Shown here: positions 1-59,387 of the stretch, one piece after another
Layout: each line of letters begins with the position of its first letter
Numbering within the stretch: position 1 is the first letter of the stretch
Notes under the pieces: model-generated
Told to the model about the DNA's origin: nothing
The model's input: the letters and a program-made list of their open reading frames with translations, nothing else
The model's database searches: none
From: Spirochaetota bacterium
GTDB lineage: Bacteria; Spirochaetota; UBA4802; JAFGJZ01
Assembly (NCBI GenBank): GCA_035395685.1
Contig: DAOPBR010000002.1
Span: forward strand, 84,488 to 148,487
Direction of reading: 5' to 3'
DNA: 64,000 nt
Position numbers and translations under genes: made by a program

Positions 1-41
1 TTTATTATAAATGAAATATTAAGTAACCGGCGGAGATCAAC

Positions 42-2342
42 ATGAAAAGACTCAGAATCGGCCTCCAAACTGCGAGACTGGAATACGGGTACGGTGTAAA
101 ATTGTGGCAGGGAGCGCTGATTTCCGCAAAACAAAGAGATGCGGATCTAATAGTATTTCCAGGACGCAATCTGAATTCTCCCCATGGATATGATTATCAG
201 TATAACAGCATCTTCAGTTTGATGAATCTTGAAAATATTGATTCACTCATTCTGATTACAACACTTATCAGCAATTACGTTGACAAAGAAGAGTTAAACA
301 AATTCCGCATGAGATTTTCAGATCTTCCAATTATCAGTGTCGGAGCAAGGATTGAAAATACCCCCAGCATTCTCATAGACAACCGGTCCGGAATAAGAGA
401 TCTTGTAAGACATCAAATTGAAGTTCACGGTGCAAAAAGAATCGCATTTATAAAAGGGCCTGAAAATAATTGGGAAGCCGACGAAAGATATCAGGCATAC
501 AAGTTAGAGTTAGAAGCAAACGGAATTCCTTTTGATGAAAGACTAATTGGCAACGGAGATTTCACTTCTCACAGTGTAGCTCCCGCGATTGAGAAAATAC
601 TAAATTCAAACGATCTTCTTCCTGAAGTATTTATGTTTGCAAACGATGAAATGGCAATACATGGCATGAGGCTTCTCAGAGAAAAAGGCATAGATATTCC
701 CGGAGATACATCTATTACTGGATTTGATGATATACATGAGGCTGCATCGCAGTCTGTTCCGATAACCACAGTATCACAGCCCCTTGCGGAAATGATAGAC
801 CGCGCGGTAAATCTGGCTGTTGAACTTGCGCAGGGAAAGGAAAGCCCTTTTGAAACCATTCTTCCGACACACGCCGTAATCAGATCATCATGCGGATGCA
901 TTGCTCATTGCGTAAATGACGTTGTAAGTATAAGAAAAAACCAATTCATCAAAGATGATAAAGAAGATGTTTGCAGTCAGGTTCTCAAGATTCTTGATAA
1001 ATATCATTTTGAAAACTATTCCGATAAAAACACAAGGCGTACCAATGTCGAACAGGTAATTCGCAAGATTATTTCTTTATCATCCGGCAATGAAAACGAA
1101 ACAGCCGAAGAAAAAGACATTTATTCCTTTTTCAATTTTTTCAGCCGAATACTGATGGAAGAAGCTTCACAAGAACTTCCGCCGGAACATTGGGAGATTC
1201 CGCTTTCAATTCTATCTGAGTTAGTAAATTCCTCACGTGCAACAGATATTATGCTTGATCAGTTCAGATTTCTTCTGCGTGCATGCGCGGTTTTAACCCT
1301 TGATTCCGCGCTCAACATGCGCGTCGCGAATCATTTCGAATTTGAAAGAATAATTGAACGCATTCATGATTTAGAATATGATATCTCTTCTGTAGTCGAT
1401 TTGAATTCTCTCATACAAATTCTCGTAAGAAAGCTTCCAAGCGTGGGAATCAATACATTCATGCTGTCAAAATATAAAACCGATTGGGAACAGAAGCGCG
1501 ATGACGAATGGTCAGAACTCCCGGATCTGAAATGCGTGGCCTCTATGTGCGACAGCAGTGAAATGAATACACTTGAACTTAATGACAGCGGGGCATTAAA
1601 GTGGATTTCATCACCAGGCAGATCCGAAAATGACAGAAGCAGAGCTTTTGTCATTTATCCCCTGTTTTTCCGTGAAAATCATTACGGAATTATTGCCTAC
1701 GAACTTTCGCTTCAAAGCGGATTCATATACGAAAGTCTGACAACCCAGATATCAGGAGTTTTAAAACGTATATTTCTATATGACGCGAAAGATAAAGCCG
1801 AACAGGGGCTCCGTCAGGCTATGCGCGATCTTGAAATTTTTAATGCACAGCTTAGTCAGCTTTCAATAACGGATGAATTGACGGGATTATTCAACAGACG
1901 CGGTTTTATGAAAATGGCAGAACATTCATCCTTTCTCGCGCGCCAAATGGGACAGTCTTCGATGCTGATATTCGCAGATCTCGATAAACTCAAGAAAATC
2001 AACGACACTTACGGACATGATGAAGGCGACTGGGCGATAAAAACAGTTTCCGAAGCTTTGAAGAAGACATTCCGTTCCAATGATGTAGTTGCGCGTCTCG
2101 GCGGAGACGAATTTACAGTTTTCGCGACAAACATGAAAGAAGAACTTCTTCCAAGATCTCAGGCCCGTATAAATGATTTTTTAAAACAAAAATGCGCAGG
2201 AAAACAAAAGGAATATCAACTGACTATAAGCATCGGTCATGTTATATGCCCGGTTAACGAATCGCTAAGTATCGAAGAATATATGCAGATAGCCGACAGC
2301 CGATTGTATGAGCAGAAAAAAAAGAAACATGCTGGAAGCTGA
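42..2342 (+). CDS. Diguanylate cyclase: N-terminal periplasmic-binding-protein-like (LacI/sugar-binding fold) sensor, an unassigned middle region of about 280 aa, and a C-terminal GGDEF domain
   Basis: 766-aa ORF. The C-terminus carries the GGDEF signature (..DKLKKINDTYGHDEGDWAIK..RLGGDEFTVFA..). The N-terminal roughly 300 aa have a PBP type-I-like pattern (IAFIKGPENNWEADERYQAYK, GFDD) with an 'SSCGCI' motif. No signal peptide or TM segment is apparent, so the protein is predicted cytoplasmic. Confidence 0.85.
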   Translation: MKRLRIGLQTARLEYGYGVKLWQGALISAKQRDADLIVFPGRNLNSPHGYDYQYNSIFSLMNLENIDSLILITTLISNYVDKEELNKFRMRFSDLPIISVGARIENTPSILIDNRSGIRDLVRHQIEVHGAKRIAFIKGPENNWEADERYQAYKLELEANGIPFDERLIGNGDFTSHSVAPAIEKILNSNDLLPEVFMFANDEMAIHGMRLLREKGIDIPGDTSITGFDDIHEAASQSVPITTVSQPLAEMIDRAVNLAVELAQGKESPFETILPTHAVIRSSCGCIAHCVNDVVSIRKNQFIKDDKEDVCSQVLKILDKYHFENYSDKNTRRTNVEQVIRKIISLSSGNENETAEEKDIYSFFNFFSRILMEEASQELPPEHWEIPLSILSELVNSSRATDIMLDQFRFLLRACAVLTLDSALNMRVANHFEFERIIERIHDLEYDISSVVDLNSLIQILVRKLPSVGINTFMLSKYKTDWEQKRDDEWSELPDLKCVASMCDSSEMNTLELNDSGALKWISSPGRSENDRSRAFVIYPLFFRENHYGIIAYELSLQSGFIYESLTTQISGVLKRIFLYDAKDKAEQGLRQAMRDLEIFNAQLSQLSITDELTGLFNRRGFMKMAEHSSFLARQMGQSSMLIFADLDKLKKINDTYGHDEGDWAIKTVSEALKKTFRSNDVVARLGGDEFTVFATNMKEELLPRSQARINDFLKQKCAGKQKEYQLTISIGHVICPVNESLSIEEYMQIADSRLYEQKKKKHAGS

Positions 2343-2344
2343 TG

Positions 2345-2700
2345 GGATCAGTGATTGCATGGTGTTATGCAATCACTGGAAGGTGCTACAAGGCGAAGTC
2401 TTATAGAGTACGCTAAACTCGCAGGCAGTCGGAACGATCCCGACAACCGAGACGCTACAAATCCGGCAGGAAGCCGGTTTAAAAGCGTCTCGACAGGAGC
2501 GGCTTCCATGCGGATTTATTTTTGGAATCATTACGTTATAAGTTTTTCTCAGCGAACATCCTATTCGCTTCGATTATAACTTGAAATTAACTTAACACCT
2601 CAAACTCCAAGGTAATGCTTGCGTTTTCCCGCTGTGGTCTTCAACCACCTCGCGGGCTATCTTTCCGCATCCATGCGGAAAGTAAAATCAGCATCGCGGT
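2345..2700. repeat. Solo copy of the hairpin-rich mosaic repeat family (same family as 56.1-59.3 kb)
   Basis: The element begins right after the stop codon of the GGDEF gene. It contains these modules: a perfect hairpin gtgattgcat-ggtgtt-atgcaatcac (2351-2376); 'ctcgcaggcagtcggaacgatcccgacaaccgagacgct'; 'aaaagcgtctcgacag'; and a segment of about 130 nt homologous to the 58343/58803/59176 unit. That unit includes stems agcgaa/ttcgct, cccgctgtgg/ccacctcgcggg (2628-2656) and tttccgca-tcca-tgcggaaa (2662-2681). Confidence 0.7.
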
Positions 2701-3837
2701 AATGATTAATGATATTCCGCTTATTATAAACGAATGCTGATATCCGAGTGAATGACCTATTTTCGGATAGATCATCATTCCGAAGAGGCTTCCTGCAACC
2801 TGAGATATTCCCCATATCCCCATGTTTCCGCCGAGCTTCTTCTTATCAAAAAGCGAACCGAGTCCGTGAAGTGTTACAAGCAAAACCATTCCGTCGCTCG
2901 CGCCGTGAATCATTCTCATCGCTAATGAAAAATAATAGTTCGGATTTACTTTCAGTATCATCGTTAATCCTGAAAAAAATACGCCGATCATAAATAATGT
3001 CAGAAGCGACATCTTGCCCTTCTCTATTATTCCGGCAAAGAAAAATGCAGCTGCCGGAAACGCTAAAAACTCGCACATCATGTATACTGTTGTATCCACC
3101 ATTCCGGCGTGTAAATAATGCTTAAGAAACAACGCGTAGCATGTTTCTTCGGCTCCCCAGTGCGATGAAAAGAGAAATAGAATTATACAGAAAACAATTA
3201 TACCCTTGCCTGTTTTCGTCTTTCCGTATTCGCGCAGAGGAACTTTTGCCGTATGTGTTTTTTTAAGCTTGAACGCTATCAAAGATGAAACTGCGAAAAT
3301 CACGCATGCTGCAATCGTCATCAGCTTAAAATTGGAATTTTCGCCGTAAATAATCTGAAAAAGAAAAACCGAGGCCAATCCGATAAATCCGGCCGCTGCA
3401 GTCACAAACAAATATTTTACAAGATGCTTTTCAGAATGTTCACCGAGAAGACGCTTTATGAAAAGTGAATCGAAGCTTGACTGAAATAGACTTTTTCCGC
3501 AAGCGAAAAGCGCGAATACGGGAATAAGCACCGCAAAGCTTGAGCCGAAACTGAGCGCCGCGGCAAAACCCGACAGAAGAAGAAACGCAAATAGAATGAG
3601 TTTTCTTGATTCTACCCTGTCATTAATAATCCCTGAAGGAAAAGCGAGAAGAAAGCTTACAAGCGGAACCTCCGCCATCAATATCCCCGTATAGATTCCT
3701 GTAATACCTTTCTGCTCAAGAAATAGAGGAATAAACCATGAAAGCGGAAACACAACCGCCTTAAATATAAAAAAGGCCGAATACTCGGCAAAATTTTTCT
3801 TCATAATTGCACCGCCGCGTGCAATTATGAACCGCAT
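2641..3837 (-). CDS. MFS-type transporter (about 12 TM helices)
   Basis: Strongly hydrophobic 398-aa ORF with repeated TM-helix pattern. The likely start is the internal Met (MKKNFAEY, about 3804). The last 9 codons (MRKDSPRGG) plus the stop are encoded inside the mosaic repeat at 2641-2682. Confidence 0.7.
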   Translation of the reverse strand: MRFIIARGGAIMKKNFAEYSAFFIFKAVVFPLSWFIPLFLEQKGITGIYTGILMAEVPLVSFLLAFPSGIINDRVESRKLILFAFLLLSGFAAALSFGSSFAVLIPVFALFACGKSLFQSSFDSLFIKRLLGEHSEKHLVKYLFVTAAAGFIGLASVFLFQIIYGENSNFKLMTIAACVIFAVSSLIAFKLKKTHTAKVPLREYGKTKTGKGIIVFCIILFLFSSHWGAEETCYALFLKHYLHAGMVDTTVYMMCEFLAFPAAAFFFAGIIEKGKMSLLTLFMIGVFFSGLTMILKVNPNYYFSLAMRMIHGASDGMVLLVTLHGLGSLFDKKKLGGNMGIWGISQVAGSLFGMMIYPKIGHSLGYQHSFIISGISLIITAMLILLSAWMRKDSPRGG

Positions 3838-4030
3838 ATACTTTTGTCAAGAAACAATATGGTTTTCATTTGAAGAGTGCGGAAGGACTGAAATAAGTAC
3901 TCAAGGTACGTTAGGCATCTATGCCGTGTCTCTTCCGCACTGAAGCAGGGGATACTGACATTTAAACCTCGCAGTGCGCTTCTGCAATTAATATACAATT
4001 GACTGCAGAAACGTCAACCGTCGGATTAAA

Positions 4031-5008
4031 TTATTTTTCTTCTGAAGAAATTTTTTGCCAGATTTCCGGATTCTCCTGACCTATGCGCCAGAAAGCAATC
4101 TTCGCGGCCCCCGCATTTTTATATATGCCGAATTTTTTCCGAAGTGATTCCTCGTCATCATAATAAAGCGACACCTCAACAGTTTCGGTATACCTGACAT
4201 TCGGAATTCCGTCTTCAGTCCTGCTTATTGAAAGATTTTTCAACTTTATGAGATTTGCAACTCCGCGGTTGATGTAAGCCTTAGCCGGATTCTTATCAAT
4301 CCACGCCCTTCCGTAGAACGGAATTCCCATTACGAGCTTTTCTCGAGGTATATGTTTCGCGGCATAAGACGATACTTCCCGGCACCATGCGTTTGATGCA
4401 ACAGGTCCGGGTTTACTCGTGCTCCAGTGCTCGTCATAAGCCATAATAATGATGCGGTCTACTGATTTCGATATTTTTTCATAATCATATGCATCATCCA
4501 CTTTTTTTCTTCTCGCAGGAAGAGCAACACTCAAAGTCTTATCTTTAATTTTAGCCTTCAGCTCATAAAGAAAAGAAATGAAATTATCCCTGTCTGCCGG
4601 ACGCACAGCCTCAAAATCAATCTGAACCCCCGCAAACGGCTTCGACTTGACGGCAATGCTTTCTAAAAGTTCGGCTCTGAAGGGAAGATCCGGACGCAGA
4701 ACAAAGTGGGTCAGCGAATAATCCGAAGTTTCGGCTATAACAAGATGAACTCTTCTGCCGAAATGACTTATCGCTCCGACATCAGGAACGCCACGAAGAC
4801 TCCCGTCCAAAGAAACCTTTGCGGAAAAATATCCAATATCCGTAACCGGAGAATTTTTAGTAAAATATTTTTCTTCACCGCTCATCAGATATCCCCATAT
4901 TTCCGTAAAAAATACAGGAGACGCGGCTTCTGCTTCAATATCCGCACGGACGTAAGAAAACGCCAGGCAGAAGAAGCCTGTAACAGCACATAATAATAAT
5001 TTTTTCAT
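4031..5008 (-). CDS. Secreted glycoside hydrolase family 18-like protein (YdhD/chitinase-like fold)
   Basis: N-terminal signal peptide (MKKLLLCAVTGFFCLAFS). Contains the 'MGIPFYGRAW' motif typical of GH18 and a 'VQIDFEAV' catalytic-region-like segment. Confidence 0.5.
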   Translation of the reverse strand: MKKLLLCAVTGFFCLAFSYVRADIEAEAASPVFFTEIWGYLMSGEEKYFTKNSPVTDIGYFSAKVSLDGSLRGVPDVGAISHFGRRVHLVIAETSDYSLTHFVLRPDLPFRAELLESIAVKSKPFAGVQIDFEAVRPADRDNFISFLYELKAKIKDKTLSVALPARRKKVDDAYDYEKISKSVDRIIIMAYDEHWSTSKPGPVASNAWCREVSSYAAKHIPREKLVMGIPFYGRAWIDKNPAKAYINRGVANLIKLKNLSISRTEDGIPNVRYTETVEVSLYYDDEESLRKKFGIYKNAGAAKIAFWRIGQENPEIWQKISSEEK

Positions 5009-5068
5009 TTAAAGATCTTTAGAAATGGAATTCGGGGAGCTGCAAGAGCTCCCCGGGATTATCGTTGA

Positions 5069-5458
5069 TTACTTAGAAGTTCTTGAAGTAAACTTGTCCG
5101 GACCTGCAACGTCGATATTAACTACAGTTTTGATGTCTCCCTGAGAAACAACAAGCTCAGCAGCACCTTCAGCTTTAGCTCTAACAGCAGCTTTAGGACC
5201 TACTGGATTAACAAGAGTTATGATACCTGCGAATTTTTTGTCAACAGACCATGTAGGATTGATAACAACAGGATTACCTGCAGAATCAAGACCTTTAGCT
5301 GTAAAAGAGAAAACATTTCCTTTTTCAATCTGTGCAGATGAAGGATCTACAACGATTGTAGAAAGAACTCCTAGAGCAGTCTTAGGCTGTGCAGTTTCAC
5401 AAGCAGCGGCAACAGCAACAACTGTCAATAGAACCAAGCATACTAATGCTTTTTTCAT
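5069..5458 (-). CDS. Small lipoprotein with a bacterial Ig-like (Big_2-type) domain
   Basis: Signal peptide plus lipobox (..VAAACET). Beta-rich Ig-like sequence of 129 aa. Confidence 0.45.
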   Translation of the reverse strand: MKKALVCLVLLTVVAVAAACETAQPKTALGVLSTIVVDPSSAQIEKGNVFSFTAKGLDSAGNPVVINPTWSVDKKFAGIITLVNPVGPKAAVRAKAEGAAELVVSQGDIKTVVNIDVAGPDKFTSRTSK

Positions 5459-5584
5459 TTTAGTCTCCTTAATTTTGTCATTTAAAATTGGTTCGAAAAC
5501 CGAATAAACTATAGTAATAATCCCTTTATATTATTGTAAAGCATTTTATTGCCTTACATCTCAAAGAAATCAACTTATAAATTC

Positions 5585-52801: not shown

Positions 52802-53875
52802 TCAAGCCATTACGCTTATCTTCTCTTCATCTAAAAACTCTTCCGTTGATAAAGTATGCGATAAAGTAATCTTTTTATTCTTAAACAACTTAGAAATATC
52901 TTTTTCAATTTTTTTTGCTAAATGATATGCCAAATTAACCGGAACAGCATTCCCAATCATTTTATATCCTGCTGTCAAATTATTGTATTTGAACACAAAG
53001 CTGTCTGGAAAAGTTTGTATCCGAGCACATTCACGAATACTTAATCTTCTGTATAAATGCTCTTGTCCTGGAGAAAATATTCTTTTATTCTGTTCAACAA
53101 AAACCATTTTGGGAGCTTGCGGATGTAAAGGAGCATGCCTTCCACCAGCTTGGATGGTAAACGAAACTTCATCCCAAGATCTCACTCTATTGCGAGACAT
53201 GAAAATCGTAGAGAAACCTCCAGTCATATATTCATGATTAGGAATAACGCATTTATTTCCATTCGTTTTTTGGAGAGAAAGCGCCGGTAAAGCATTATCC
53301 TTTAAATCATAAATGACATCTTTAAGAAGAACTTTATCGTGTTCAGTAATTGGTTCTGGAAAATTAAATTCTATTCCCAGATCAGAGCGATAACCAATAA
53401 AGAAAACTCGTTTTCTATCCTGTGGTACTCCATAATCTGATGCATTCAGAAGAGCGAATGATAAATTATAACCGCTTTCAACAAACATTTCTTTAATATT
53501 TTGCAATGCCTTACCATGTGTTGGCAACAACATTCCAGATACATTTTCAGCTAAAAAAAACAATGGTTTTTTATCACGCAAAATTCTGATAAAATCAAAA
53601 AACAATTGTCCTCTTTTATCATTAATTCCTCGAAGAGCGCCTGCTTCACTCCAACTTTGACAAGGTGGACCTCCAATAATACCGATGCATTCAGGAATTT
53701 CATTAGATGAAATTTCCGTTATACTTCTTTTATCTAAAATTGTTTTTTTATGATTAGCTTCAAATGTTTCCCATATTTCTTTGTCATATTCATTAGCCCA
53801 GACAATATTAAATCCAGCTTTTTGGAAACCTAAATCAAGTCCACCCGCTCCTGAAAAAAAAGAAACAATATTCAT
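52802..53875 (-). CDS. DNA (cytosine-5) methyltransferase, M.HaeIII-like (predicted GGCC specificity)
   Basis: Motif [12 protein letters not shown], motif [11 protein letters not shown], motif VI ENV, motif [16 protein letters not shown]-terminal variable region (..[41 protein letters not shown]..) resembles M.HaeIII/M.NgoPII as recalled. GGCC specificity is not verified. Confidence 0.9.
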
Positions 53876-53885
53876 TTATTTCTCC

Positions 53886-54872
53886 CTAAATTGTATTAAC
53901 CGATAAAGTATTCTTAAAAAGAGTATGAGGCGCACTTAGCAAATTGATGTCAAATTTTAATGATGGCTCAATTCTTGAACTGGCATTATGTATTCGAAAA
54001 GAAAGCTCCCAACCTTTATTAAATTTTACAATTATAGTTGTTAAAGAATTCTCTTTAAACTGAACATCTATAATCTGATCAGGTAGCCCGACAATGGGCG
54101 TAACAAATTTTGGAAACTTATCCTTAAAAGGCAAATTTAAAGTACCATGCAGATTAAAAGCTTGAATTTCAATATGATTCGTACTTCTTATAACTTTATA
54201 AAAATCTTTGTTACCAACTAAATATTCTATCATTCTTGAAGCTACTTGTTTTTTATTCATACTATATAATTTCAACAACTCATTTCGGAATGCTTCCAAA
54301 ATCGGCTTATATATTGATTCATGGTAATTGCCTAGCGTATCCCATTTCTGAGTGGATTTACTATCTATCTTAATTTTCTTTAACAAATCAAAAACCGGAG
54401 CTACATTTTCAAAATACTCTGATGAGCAATTAACACCAAGCCATTTATCGCCAAAATCTATATCATTAGATAAACGCGAATGCTTTACTGCGTGATGATT
54501 ATTTTTTGCAGATATGCCAATTTCCCATTTTTGCATTAGACGAATCGCAAGAACATCTCTTACATCACCTTCTTGCCCATGATTATCTGTCAATATTTCA
54601 AGTTGAAGCAAGTCCTTTTTATTTATACCATTTGAAAGACGAGGTTCAATATCAATCATAAAATTGACAGCAAAACTTGCACTTAATAAATAACGACTCT
54701 TTTCATTTTTATCGATACGGCTAAAACATTCTTCGGCAGTTATATACGCGGCGTTCTCAATAACTTGAACAGTAGTTTCTTTGGATAACTTCTCAAAAAA
54801 TTCTTTCAACAAAGCATATTCAAATGCTTTTCCACTTATCATTTGTTTTGAATTTTCAATCATGGATAACAC
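53886..54872 (-). CDS. Putative type II restriction endonuclease partnered with the m5C methyltransferase (HaeIII-type suspected)
   Basis: 328-aa ORF 10 bp upstream of the methyltransferase gene on the same strand. Size and context fit R.HaeIII-like enzymes. No motif was independently recognised. Confidence 0.5.
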   Translation of the reverse strand: MLSMIENSKQMISGKAFEYALLKEFFEKLSKETTVQVIENAAYITAEECFSRIDKNEKSRYLLSASFAVNFMIDIEPRLSNGINKKDLLQLEILTDNHGQEGDVRDVLAIRLMQKWEIGISAKNNHHAVKHSRLSNDIDFGDKWLGVNCSSEYFENVAPVFDLLKKIKIDSKSTQKWDTLGNYHESIYKPILEAFRNELLKLYSMNKKQVASRMIEYLVGNKDFYKVIRSTNHIEIQAFNLHGTLNLPFKDKFPKFVTPIVGLPDQIIDVQFKENSLTTIIVKFNKGWELSFRIHNASSRIEPSLKFDINLLSAPHTLFKNTLSVNTI

Positions 54873-55116
54873 CTATAATTTGTTGAGAGTCAAATCCTCT
54901 TAACTTATTACAAACCATCGCTATCATCGTCAATACTAAAACCATGAACAAAGAACATGTTCGTCATAGTAATTTATAAACAAGAAAATTCTCACCAGTA
55001 ACCTCTCAGCGCCAAATTACTCGAATACTTTACAAAGGATATAACGTATTTTAGAAATTAATTATCAATATAACTTTTTTTTTGCAATCCGTTGAAAGCG
55101 GTCTGAAAATCAAGGC

Positions 55117-55166
55117 GAAAAAGGTGGACATCCCGTCAGGCTGTTTTACATTATTGAGGAGAGGGA
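55117..55166 (+). repeat. Right, degenerate copy of the flaB-terminator-derived direct repeat (R-M cassette boundary)
   Basis: gaaaaaggtggacatcccgtcaggctgttttacattattgaggagaggg matches 52714-52760 at about 70% identity. The stem complementarity is lost in this copy. Confidence 0.5.
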
Positions 55167-55260
55167 AATTAGAACAGGGGTCAGTCCGAGATAGTTATTT
55201 CCTCAAAAAAAGAAAGCTTCTATATTGAATCATTTCGTATTATATAAGATGGATAACATT

Positions 55261-55773
55261 TTAATTATCCTTTTCTGGAATAATCGAAGCTAAATCATCT
55301 TCAACATCAATTCCATATAAAGTTGCAATTTGAGCAACCATGATACCAAAATTACCTCTTAATTCTCCTAACGCAGAAGCAAAAGTCCAACTTGCCCAAT
55401 GACCCCAACTCCTTGCATTATCCATGAATCTATTATCTTCAATATTCATTTTATCAAGAAATTTCCTACAGGATATACGCATAGCTTTAACTGGATCATA
55501 CAGTTTTGATTTATTAGACAAACTTTGCAATTCCGTAGTTAAAAATTTACGAATTTCAATAATGGATTGAACACAGTGGTTGGGCACTTCCATTTCGCTC
55601 GGACTATATAAAACCCTGCGATCTTCGAGAAAACGAATAATCCGTTTTGCAATATTACATTCTGCCTCTGATGGATTCCAAGAAATTCCAAATACAGAAC
55701 AATTAATTCCGGTTATTCTTTCTCTGATTTCTGAAAATTTCATAATCATTCCTAAATCAAAATTTCTATCCAT
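55261..55773 (-). CDS. Hypothetical protein, orphan 170-aa ORF in the accessory island
   Basis: Clean ORF with its own 330-bp AT-rich upstream region. No recognisable motif (it lacks the Vsr, HTH and PIN signatures that were checked). Confidence 0.5.
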   Translation of the reverse strand: MDRNFDLGMIMKFSEIRERITGINCSVFGISWNPSEAECNIAKRIIRFLEDRRVLYSPSEMEVPNHCVQSIIEIRKFLTTELQSLSNKSKLYDPVKAMRISCRKFLDKMNIEDNRFMDNARSWGHWASWTFASALGELRGNFGIMVAQIATLYGIDVEDDLASIIPEKDN

Positions 55774-56099
55774 TTATCCTAAACATAGATGATACTTCTG
55801 TCACATACTCCACCAAAAATCTAATAATACACGAAGCTAAACCTATAAAATGTTTCAATCTCGCTTCTTTTGTTTTTTCATTTTAAAGTTGCGAACTGTT
55901 CAGCTTTAACCGATGAACACCCTAAGATCTTCCACTCAATGATTATTATGATCTTTATGCATAATGTTTTCATGAATGTCAAATCCAAAATAATCCAACT
56001 GTCACAGAAAAAATTACGCGTATGCTGAGCGCAGCGAATAAACGCGTAATGATATTATAAAATGAATGATTTCTAAAATCAAGAAAGTGCGCTAAGCAC

Positions 56100-56337
56100 T
56101 TCAAATAAAGACGGATGATAGCAATAACACCAAAACCGTCCGACGCAGTCGGACACCAAATAAGCGCAGATTATCGCAGTCATTTCGAAGAAATGCGCGA
56201 TAGTTCTGTCGCGACAAGCCCCGCGCAGCGGTGCCCTTTTCTTTCGCCGAATTTCTTTTGGGCACGCAAAAGAAATCGGCAAACGGATTTAAAAGGTGCG
56301 AAGCACCTTTTGTGTCTCGCATGACACCATGCGAAAC
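56100..56337. repeat. GC-rich, hairpin-dense mosaic element abutting the mazF stop codon
   Basis: Hairpins aaaaggtgc-gaa-gcacctttt (56291-56311), tcgcatg-acacc-catgcga (56317-56334, 3 nt from the mazF stop), gccgaatttctttt...aaaagaaatcggc, and gtccgac-gca-gtcggac (56137-56153). These modules are shared with the element at 57105-57488. Confidence 0.7.
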
Positions 56338-56924: not shown

Positions 56925-57104
56925 TTAACGTAATCACAATATAGTTACATGTCAACTGTTTAATTTCTTCAAATCAACTCTTCCCCTAACCTCATTCCGC
57001 CGCATTCGAACAAACCAAAATCAATGCAAGATTAAATCGCCATAAAATATACCGCTTCATAACGATTGAAATCTGCATGCTTAGTGATTACAGAAATTTC
57101 AAAT

Positions 57105-57488
57105 CTAAAAACAAACCGCCTGGCGTGGGGAAAAGATGAATGAAAACAAAATCATTAAAACGTCCGACGCAGTCGGACACTAAGGCGGTAGGAGAACCGC
57201 CACCGAGGCGCTTCACAAGCAAACAGGAAGTTTGCACAAAGCGCCTCGCAACGGGCGACCGCAGCATCCGGCAAAGCCGGTGCGAGGAATTCGCCCGACA
57301 AAAGCCAGGAGTGGGATCTCAAAGGGATGAGGAGCGGCGACTGAGCTCCTCGTCCCTTTGAATATTCTCGCATGATCCATGCGAAACCGGATTACAAAGG
57401 CGAAGCCTTTGACAACAAGTCCGGTGACCGGACAAATCGGATTTAAAAGGTGCTCTGCACCTTTTATGTATCACATGACACCATGTAA
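57105..57488. repeat. GC-rich, hairpin-dense mosaic element abutting the vapC stop codon
   Basis: aaaaggtgc-tct-gcacctttt (57445-57465); tcgcatg-atc-catgcga; caaaggc-gaa-gcctttg; gtccgg-tga-ccggac; a long stem aagggatgaggagc...gctcctcgtccctt; gaggcgctt...aagcgcctc (57205-57247) enclosing gcaaac..gtttgc; gtccgac-gca-gtcggac (57162-57178); and the aaaacaaaccgccWggYgtgg module (57107-57134). Confidence 0.7.
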
Positions 57489-58283: not shown

Positions 58284-59320
58284 AAAAACAAACCGCCAGG
58301 TGTGGAAAAAAAATACGTGCGCCCTCACCTCGGCTCCTGTAAAATTTACTCACAAATTCAGTGTCCCATTGCTTTATCTCCGCGAACTTCCTGTTCGCTC
58401 CGAATGCAACTTTAAATCAATTTAACACCTATATCTCCGAGGTAACGCTTGCGTTCTCCTGCTGCGGACTTCGTCCGCCTCGCAGGCAGTCGGAACGATC
58501 CCGACAATCGAGACGCTTCCCTCGCAAACTGCTCGACTCTTTTTGTGCCGTCCTGGCACAGAGTCTCGTTGCCATCATCGTGATGGCTCAAAGTTTGCAC
58601 AAAAGCGTCTCGACAGTTTCCGCCTCCGTGCGTTAGAGCATTTATGCTTGAATACAATTGTTGCTTTTTCTCAACGGTCATCCTTGACCGTTTCGATTAT
58701 ATCAATAATGCCAATTATCACCTCAAACTATGCGGTAACGCTTGCGGTCTCCCGCTATGGACTTCGTCCATAGCGGGCAATGTTTCCGCCTCCGTGCGGA
58801 TTTACTCACAAATTCAGTATACCATTGCTTTATCTCCGCGAACTTCCTGTTCGCTCCGGATACAACATCAAATTGATTTATCACCTCAAACTATGCGGTA
58901 ACGCTTGCGTTCTCCTGCTGCGGACTTCGTCCATCTCGCAGGCAGTCGGAACGATCCCGACAATCGAGACGCTTCCCTCGCAAACAGGAGGTTTGCACAA
59001 AAGCGTCTCGACAGTTTCTACTCCTCGGCGCGTTTGCCGTCCTGGCCGCGCCTCATTGCCGGAAGGAATCCGGCAACAAATCGCAACTTGTCGTCACGGA
59101 GGACGACACAAAGCGATTTGCAATGCACATCCTGTGCAAGCGCCTGCGGATTTGCTAATGACTTCAATCAAATGATTCGTTATCTCCGCGAACTTCCTGT
59201 TCGCTCCGAATGTAACTTTAAATCAATTTAACACCTATATCTCCGAGGTAACGCTTGCGTTCTCCTGCTGCGGACTCCGTCCGCCTCGCAGGCAATGTTT
59301 CCGCCTCCGTGCGGAAACTG
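58284..59320. repeat. ORF-less tandem array of the mosaic hairpin repeat family: about 2.3 copies of a 460-bp composite unit plus partial modules
   Basis: A unit of about 145 nt starts at 58343, 58803 and (5'-truncated) 59176. Each copy is followed by modules agtcggaacgatcccgacaatcgagacgcttccctcgcaaac (58487, 58947), gtttgcacaaaagcgtctcgacagtttc (58589, 58994) and gtttccgc-ctccgt-gcggaaac (58781, 59297-59318). A unique 60-nt insert occupies 58529-58588. A leader module aaaacaaaccgccaggtgtgg lies at 58284-58310. The ORFs the caller reports inside the array are artefacts of GC-rich repeats. Confidence 0.75.
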
Positions 59321-59387
59321 ATTGACAATATCTGCCTATAATTTGTGCTTATCCCAAATACTTCATAATTTCCGGAGGAACCGAACC

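Follow-up and report, generated by a model that had tools for sequence, protein, structure and literature searches.

Type VI Thoeris was first described in late 2025 (bioRxiv 10.64898/2025.12.03.692087). Yirmiya et al. reported that a TIR protein produces 2'cADPR upon infection and that an adjacent effector, annotated as DUF6650 and named ThsG, arrests growth in a response that is specific to 2'cADPR (bioRxiv 10.64898/2025.12.03.692087). When modeled using AlphaFold 3, ThsG forms a hexameric tube that has basic pockets where protomers meet (bioRxiv 10.64898/2025.12.03.692087). Part of the ThsG proteins carry N-terminal membrane helices; ThsG without transmembrane (TM) helices still arrests growth on 2'cADPR, by a toxic mode that the authors call unclear (bioRxiv 10.64898/2025.12.03.692087). 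DUF6650 is also among the domains newly implicated in defense by the DefensePredictor paper, on the basis of a validated protein that has a SMEK domain and, at its C-terminus, a weak DUF6650 match. WP_010377994.1, an E. coli DUF6650 protein of 158 aa that stands alone, was scored in that paper as a likely defense gene, which is a prediction. Here, we describe a branch of the DUF6650/ThsG family whose members stand alone, without a TIR gene. This branch is new, whereas the Pfam family itself was already known.

The gene studied here (the window gene) is located on the minus strand of a 64-kb stretch of DNA from a Spirochaetota bacterium, which we refer to as the window. It lies in an island between purE/guaA and the flagellin gene. 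Genes encoding a HaeIII-type endonuclease and an m5C methyltransferase are located downstream, and genes encoding MazE/MazF and VapB/VapC (PIN) are located upstream, all on the minus strand. Pfam calls confirmed the mazEF, vapBC, and m5C methyltransferase neighbors already named in the initial annotation, and likewise the HaeIII-type endonuclease. One other MAG at NCBI, as well as several metagenome contigs from JGI and Logan, has the genes in the same arrangement. The restriction-modification (R-M) genes form a complete HaeIII-type type II pair at 52802-54872 on the minus strand (PF09556, E 4e-98; PF00145, E 1e-99).

The window protein is, by its sequence, a core DUF6650 member that is predicted to be soluble and all-helical. 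It matches Pfam DUF6650 (PF20355) with 79.6 bits (E 2.9e-22; gathering cut-off 27), and the match spans protein residues 17-161, which correspond to profile positions 2-146 of 150. A second match is to phrog_29952 of PHROGs (E 1.2e-32). The two matches contradict the initial description of the protein as having no recognizable motif. The window protein is a full-length, high-scoring member of both families, but neither family has a function attached, and the match names the protein without explaining it. No NCBIfam or PADLOC 2023 model matches the window protein.

The open reading frame at 55261..55773 (minus strand, 170 aa, ATG start) is present as first annotated. Translation almost certainly starts from the 55743 ATG, however, giving a product of 160 aa rather than 170 aa (55261..55743, from M11 of the 170-aa frame to the stop codon), because homologs begin at this position, an AGGA ribosome-binding site is suitably spaced from it, and the extension of the closest relative contains a stop. 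Among 823 homologs of the window protein, the majority are approximately 160 aa and begin at the equivalent of M11, and the in-frame 10-codon extension (55744..55773), which is probably untranslated, is missing from nearly all of them. The AGGA, read from the sequence at 55750..55753, lies 7-10 nt 5' of the 55743 ATG, and the surrounding sequence, GGAATGATTATG, is identical in the window and in the closest relative (locus L007, described below). In L007, the equivalent of the 55773 ATG is followed by an in-frame TAA that closes the extension. Residue numbers used here are those of the 170-aa frame.

Alignment of 50 family members revealed 23 invariant positions (G22, W32, P34, L49, E50, R53, L55, P58, E62, P64, C67, S70, R75, R99, F105, W129, F131, A134, G136, R139, G143, L161, and P166), and several other Arg, Lys, and Glu positions come close to invariance. 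The AlphaFold 2 (AF2) model of the window protein (pLDDT 83, pTM 0.80) consists of an N-terminal segment ending at the invariant W-x-P, followed by four long helices with a short helix between the third and fourth. The initial annotation had suggested structure prediction and a fold search as a check; the model is confident, but a fold search with it returned generic four-helix bundles only. Neither the Pfam scan nor the fold search identified an enzyme-like domain. The highest 19-residue hydropathy is 0.94, and the protein is without a transmembrane segment. A PDB sequence search with the family profile produced a score for WD40 proteins (E 5.6e-13), which we rejected as an artefact because it is the sum of many weak matches of a 27-column N-terminal motif to WD repeats, with no single stretch passing the threshold.

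For comparison, we retrieved two systems of the experimentally tested type. In the tested Bacillus-scaffold system, the TIR protein (P0121) is 100% identical to the published domain, and a 170-aa ThsG gene lies 15 bp downstream. In the E. coli type VI system (L114 2270-3618, strain A14), located in a P2 prophage hotspot between the replication endonuclease/DinI genes and the portal gene, a 243-aa effector gene has a stop overlapping the TIR start. On the contig of the Bacillus-scaffold system (L105 3494-8075), type VI Thoeris adjoins two extra TIR-domain genes, for products of 263 aa and 279 aa, and a pair of unknown genes beside a phage-type integrase, so that several TIR systems are clustered. 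We set aside a type VI TIR on an E. coli plasmid, which is frameshifted and without an effector.

The tested ThsG proteins resemble the window protein in size (TM-less forms are about 160-170 aa), in a shared G-x-x-W-x-P-x-E motif and helix order, and in being found, like the window clade, in mobile or defense regions. The AF2 models of Bacillus-type ThsG and of the window protein show an identical order of elements. At the sequence level, the similarity is weak. Neither the Bacillus-scaffold 170-aa ThsG nor the E. coli 243-aa ThsG matches Pfam DUF6650 (hmmscan, E <= 1), whereas the window protein is well above the cut-off. In profile-profile comparison of the core clade with the Bacillus-type ThsG family, the N-terminal 35 columns alone align (probability 39%, E 3e-4), and these contain the G-x-x-W-x-P-x-E motif. 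Over the FLE-x-R-x-LY stretch, there is a weak alignment (E 9e-4) to a Priestia protein that is TIR-linked, and E. coli 243-aa ThsG does not match the core-clade profile (probability 0.5%). These comparisons suggest that the tested ThsG proteins are remote relatives of the core DUF6650 clade, and transfer of function between them spans a large distance. We found no experimentally tested member of the core clade in the literature. WP_010377994.1, which equals the window protein in size and likewise stands alone, appears in the DefensePredictor prediction tables only and is missing from the tables of tested systems that we searched; a DNA-similarity search for its gene returned nothing. The link from the SMEK protein of DS-27 to the core clade was not reproduced (hhalign probability 0.1%). 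Among the invariant or near-invariant residues, R19, R52, R53, R75, R99, R103, K104, and R139 would fit basic pockets at protomer interfaces.

The composition of the window gene is foreign. Its GC3 is 0.22, and that of the R-M genes is similarly foreign (0.22-0.24), against 0.43-0.46 for the flanking purE, guaA, flagellin, and penicillin-binding protein (PBP) genes. The window gene reads best as horizontally acquired. Its closest relative, with 86% protein identity and about 88% DNA identity, is on a Bacteroidota-like metagenome contig (L007; ENA ERZ27315046 k141_308703, 1-5556). This contig carries a row of five co-oriented ORFs with an attC-like inverted repeat after each of them, in which the DUF6650 gene is a single-gene unit between repeats. 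No integrase was found on the contig. Four of the five downstream spacers start with ..YAAC, three finish with ..AACYGTTRG(C/A)AA, and the spacer after the DUF6650 gene finishes with a degenerate GTTGTAG. The attC-like repeat after the DUF6650 gene folds well beyond shuffled sequences (z -3.85). The contig also carries a T9SS-sorting-domain gene, and cassette arrays of the same type are present at L008-L012 and L022.

DNA similarity between the window and L007 starts about 50 nt 5' of the 55743 ATG, where the upstream repeat has its R'-like end, and ends about 15 nt past the stop codon. At this 5' boundary, the window contains a putative attC-like R' remnant, TATCATCTATGTTTAGGATAAATGG (55770..55794, minus strand), that aligns with TACCATCAACTGTTGGAAGAAATGG, the end of the attC-like repeat preceding the 86%-identical gene in L007. 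When the GTT cores are compared, TATCATCTATGTTTAGG of the window aligns with TACCATCAACTGTTGGA of L007, and homology starts there, with a degenerate core. The 3' side differs. The spacer between the DUF6650 gene and the HaeIII-type endonuclease gene (54873..55260, minus strand) is without an attC-like hairpin, and no hairpin was found at window positions 55130-55262 (DNA fold z +1.28). Because similarity to L007 begins at the R'-like end and the window has no 3' hairpin, the window gene is most likely a former single-gene integron-type cassette whose 3' recombination site is gone. As in integron cassettes, the nearest relative is one ORF between attC-like repeats in a co-oriented array, and the window retains the upstream boundary. 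Unlike them, the window gene has neither a 3' attC nor a nearby integrase (none within 6 kb by Pfam calls), and unrelated GC-rich hairpin repeats come after the neighboring mazEF and vapBC units.

We searched for TIR genes in three ways: three TIR domains of type VI systems served as tblastn queries, 93 type VI TIRs were combined into an HMM, and jackhmmer was run for three rounds from six diverse TIR seeds. The searches covered the 64-kb window in six frames, the two spacers flanking the window gene, and DUF6650 loci L001-L104, L110, and L111, and no TIR gene was found in any of these. In the positive controls (L105-L109 and L112-L114), every TIR was recovered, including divergent ones. Pfam calls across 12.5 kb around the window gene also contained no TIR domain, neither flanking spacer contained a TIR relic, and no TIR was present within about 6 kb of any of ~95 close homologs. 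Whereas tested-type ThsG has an adjacent TIR gene, this partner, the defining feature of type VI Thoeris, is missing at the window locus. No other gene takes its place. The immediate neighbors of about 80 loci include no shared partner family, and Pfam and PADLOC scans of 100 immediate neighbors revealed no recurrent partner gene.

We propose, at about even chances and by analogy with ThsG, that the window protein is a self-contained, single-gene, ligand-gated ThsG-like effector that would halt growth of the infected cell. A single-gene unit, formerly an integron-type cassette, would have entered the Spirochaetota genome by horizontal transfer and settled in a small toxin-antitoxin and R-M island. 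Like ThsG, the protein is expected to homo-oligomerize, with its invariant Arg, Lys, and Glu residues forming a putative pocket for a nucleotide-like signal. Ligand binding would then trigger growth arrest of the infected cell and so serve defense; we infer the oligomerization, the ligand gating, and the defense role from the same analogy. Since no paired TIR synthase is present here or in close relatives, the protein may act as a self-contained unit or on a signal made elsewhere. The initial annotation had suggested a defense or addiction component in a cassette. The papers linking DUF6650 to defense, the foreign GC3, and the L007 cassette favor the defense and cassette parts of that suggestion; the absence of a conserved partner speaks against addiction.

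It is unlikely that the window gene instead encodes an orphan ThsG effector acting in trans, whose signal (2'cADPR or another ADPR isomer related to it) would come from a TIR encoded elsewhere in the genome, or that it is what remains of a type VI operon after loss of the TIR gene. DUF6650-annotated effectors do respond specifically to 2'cADPR (bioRxiv 10.64898/2025.12.03.692087), type VI Thoeris is on record in a Spirochaetes genome and in Gallionella, and the inspected part of the window genome amounts to 64 kb. However, an operon survivor would have to be reconciled with a window and two flanking spacers that hold neither a TIR nor its relic, and with ~95 close homologs that have no TIR within about 6 kb, for which loss in each lineage is implausible. 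The nearest relative, moreover, is a one-gene cassette.

Relatives of the window protein are widespread but sporadic. A search of 185,579 species genomes (one genome per species) yielded 274 matches, or about 0.15%. The best 80 of these 274, each 50-61% identical to the query, come from Bacteroidota, Bacillota, Desulfobacterota, Pseudomonadota, Acidobacteriota, Planctomycetota, Chloroflexota, and Armatimonadota, and also include another Spirochaetota genome and three archaeal lineages. An exhaustive profile search placed 1,962 clusters (50% identity) in the family at E <= 0.001; among the best 150 of these clusters, nearly all proteins are single-domain and 150-200 aa in length. Relatives are carried by 15 plasmids, and none was found in 50,697 phage genome records. 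In Bacteroidota, the DUF6650 gene is mobile as cargo of conjugative elements bearing ArdA (about 4.5 kb away), a coupling protein, and a relaxase.

The initial annotation had proposed examining the neighborhoods of homologs for association with defense islands. Among the 100 immediate neighbors, we found a type IV secretion system (T4SS) coupling protein, a relaxase, AbiEii, HEPN/Toprim, AbiJ, HsdR, RhuM, and a KAP NTPase. Abi, R-M, and HEPN neighbors are thus seen, but no family recurs, and housekeeping genes (SecA, DXP synthase, dapB, and shikimate dehydrogenase) are neighbors at several homologs. In favor of a defense role are the Abi, R-M, HEPN, and conjugative-element neighbors and the DefensePredictor score of the 158-aa relative. 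Against it are the 50-60% identity over bacterial phyla and archaea, which is unusually high for a defense gene, the housekeeping neighbors, the generic four-helix fold matches, the lack of a PADLOC 2023 model, and the weak match to ThsG. The same observations, namely very high conservation over phyla and archaea, housekeeping genes flanking some loci, and no PADLOC model or informative fold match, would fit an accessory protein unrelated to immunity, such as a small regulatory or stress protein traveling with mobile DNA. We consider that explanation improbable, as such a protein would be sporadically distributed, in about 0.15% of species genomes, would recur beside Abi, R-M, and HEPN genes and in the cargo regions of prophages or conjugative elements, and would still be remotely related to ThsG.

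Two other arrangements of DUF6650 genes were observed. In E. coli and Klebsiella, a 260-aa DUF6650 protein has a helical domain homologous to that of the window protein (hhalign probability 98.3%, E 1.5e-14, 133 columns). Its gene, like the window gene, is TIR-less and on mobile DNA, but a 125-aa N-terminal extension that the window gene lacks replaces the W-x-P segment, and the module has a fixed 380-aa downstream partner, which the window gene also lacks. The 380-aa partner is without a Pfam match. One copy of this two-gene module lies between dicB and hokD of a lambdoid prophage (L110 5001-7018, E. coli TW10690), and another lies beside a KAP NTPase on an IncR plasmid (L102 3611-5628, K. 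pneumoniae pKPN5). The module is a candidate TIR-less DUF6650 defense system. In a Bacteroidota conjugative element (L013 5564-6340), the gene for a 258-aa protein lies 38 bp after the DUF6650 gene. This protein contains the motifs FLDMLGY and IFSDSIIL, which look nucleotide cyclase/GGDEF-like; its best Pfam match, DUF4129 (E 0.23), is not significant. If the cyclase/GGDEF resemblance is real, the 258-aa protein might make a signal for DUF6650 in place of a TIR. Nothing informative came from the genes around a 283-aa relative with an N-terminal extension.

A further explanation is that the window protein is an anti-defense decoy, in which a soluble ThsG-like oligomer without a killing module, carried by mobile elements, would absorb TIR-made signals and so shield an incoming element against immunity of the Thoeris type. 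Several properties are consistent with such a role: the window protein has neither a transmembrane segment (maximum 19-residue hydropathy 0.94) nor an enzyme-like domain, relatives reside on ArdA-bearing conjugative elements, on plasmids, and in a cassette between attC-like repeats, and high conservation fits the binding of a universal ligand. The route by which TM-less ThsG is toxic is also unclear in the original report, yet TM-less tested-type ThsG does arrest growth when given 2'cADPR (bioRxiv 10.64898/2025.12.03.692087). Known sponges (Tad1/Tad2-like) are phage-encoded, but the family is absent from 50,697 phage genomes, no structural match to a viral protein was obtained, and its neighbors are mostly defense rather than anti-defense genes. 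A decoy therefore appears quite improbable here, and the self-contained effector remains our preferred reading of the window protein.

Between the window gene and the preceding mazEF unit lies an AT-rich non-coding leader (55774..56100, minus strand). As first annotated, the leader is AT-rich (GC 0.317), its hairpins are perfect, and hairpin-A lies 5' of the region. The hairpins comprise a 9-bp palindrome, with arms ATTACGCGT at 56013-56021 and ACGCGTAAT at 56042-56050, and a stem of AAGTGC (56085-56090) and GCACTT (56096-56101). Hairpin-A (CGTCCGACGCAGTCGGAC) is at 56137-56154 and has a second exact copy at 57161-57178, where the chance expectation is zero copies. A consensus scan of the minus strand identified a putative promoter, TTGATT-17-TATAAT (10/12 matches; 56054..56082), about 310 nt 5' of the start, and a weaker putative promoter at 55804-55776. 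The same scan identified two terminator-like hairpins, each with a T-rich tail, at 56155-56137 (hairpin-A) and 56102-56084 (together 56084..56155, minus strand). They lie directly after the GC-rich element behind mazF, DNA at 56084-56160 folds with z -3.94, and they probably end the mazEF transcript. The 9-bp palindrome is just 3' of the putative -10 box.

The leader had initially been regarded as the gene's own. Similarity to L007 begins about 50 nt 5' of the ATG, however, and apart from its last ~20 nt (the attC-like remnant, 55774-55794) the leader matches no other DUF6650 locus. We read its features as local punctuation between transcription units that is not part of the mobile gene. The leader was also considered as a structured RNA and rejected (fold z -1.47 against shuffled sequences, not significant; no Rfam match), as was hairpin-A as an attC site, since it is terminator-like and present in two copies only, inside the GC-rich elements after mazF and vapC. 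An addiction-module toxin or antitoxin with its partner in a small ORF or RNA within the 330-bp leader, to which the position between mazEF/vapBC and the R-M system and the leader hairpins might point, is very unlikely, because no partner gene is conserved (none recurs among 100 immediate neighbors), no other locus conserves the leader together with the gene, and the leader has neither an Rfam match nor a significant fold.

The island also contains two kinds of repeats. GC-rich (0.46-0.49) multi-hairpin elements at 56101-56337 and 56925-57488 lie directly 3' of mazF and vapC. They have blocks in common (56281-56331 with 57435-57485, 86%; 56133-56159 with 57157-57183, 93%), and they may be a repeated terminator, an insulator element, or a MITE. 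A family of ~186-nt repeats occupies the interval between vapB and purE (58344-58529, 58800-58985, and 59150-59335). A fourth, more diverged copy is 56 kb away at 2514-2699, so this repeat is dispersed, and not all island repeats are island-specific. A search of Rfam with the 52.6-59.5 kb region found nothing relevant, and the island copies of the ~186-nt repeat were unmatched.

At the loci examined, the core DUF6650 clade, to which most of the family belongs, was never found with a TIR, and it moves as a single gene via cassettes between attC-like repeats, conjugative elements, and defense islands. We tentatively suggest, as a possibility we consider rather unlikely, that the core clade as a whole is a TIR-independent version of the ThsG fold, either a single-gene immune sensor-effector or a signal-sequestering decoy. 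A clade of this kind would explain the extreme conservation and the spread of lone genes over bacteria and archaea. If the clade does not bind a signal, then equating DUF6650 with ThsG would be a mistake for the greater part of the family, with consequences for automated defense annotation. If it binds a nucleotide signal, its members would be effectors that eavesdrop on signaling or decoys that remove the signal, and either would alter how signaling immunity is read from genomes.
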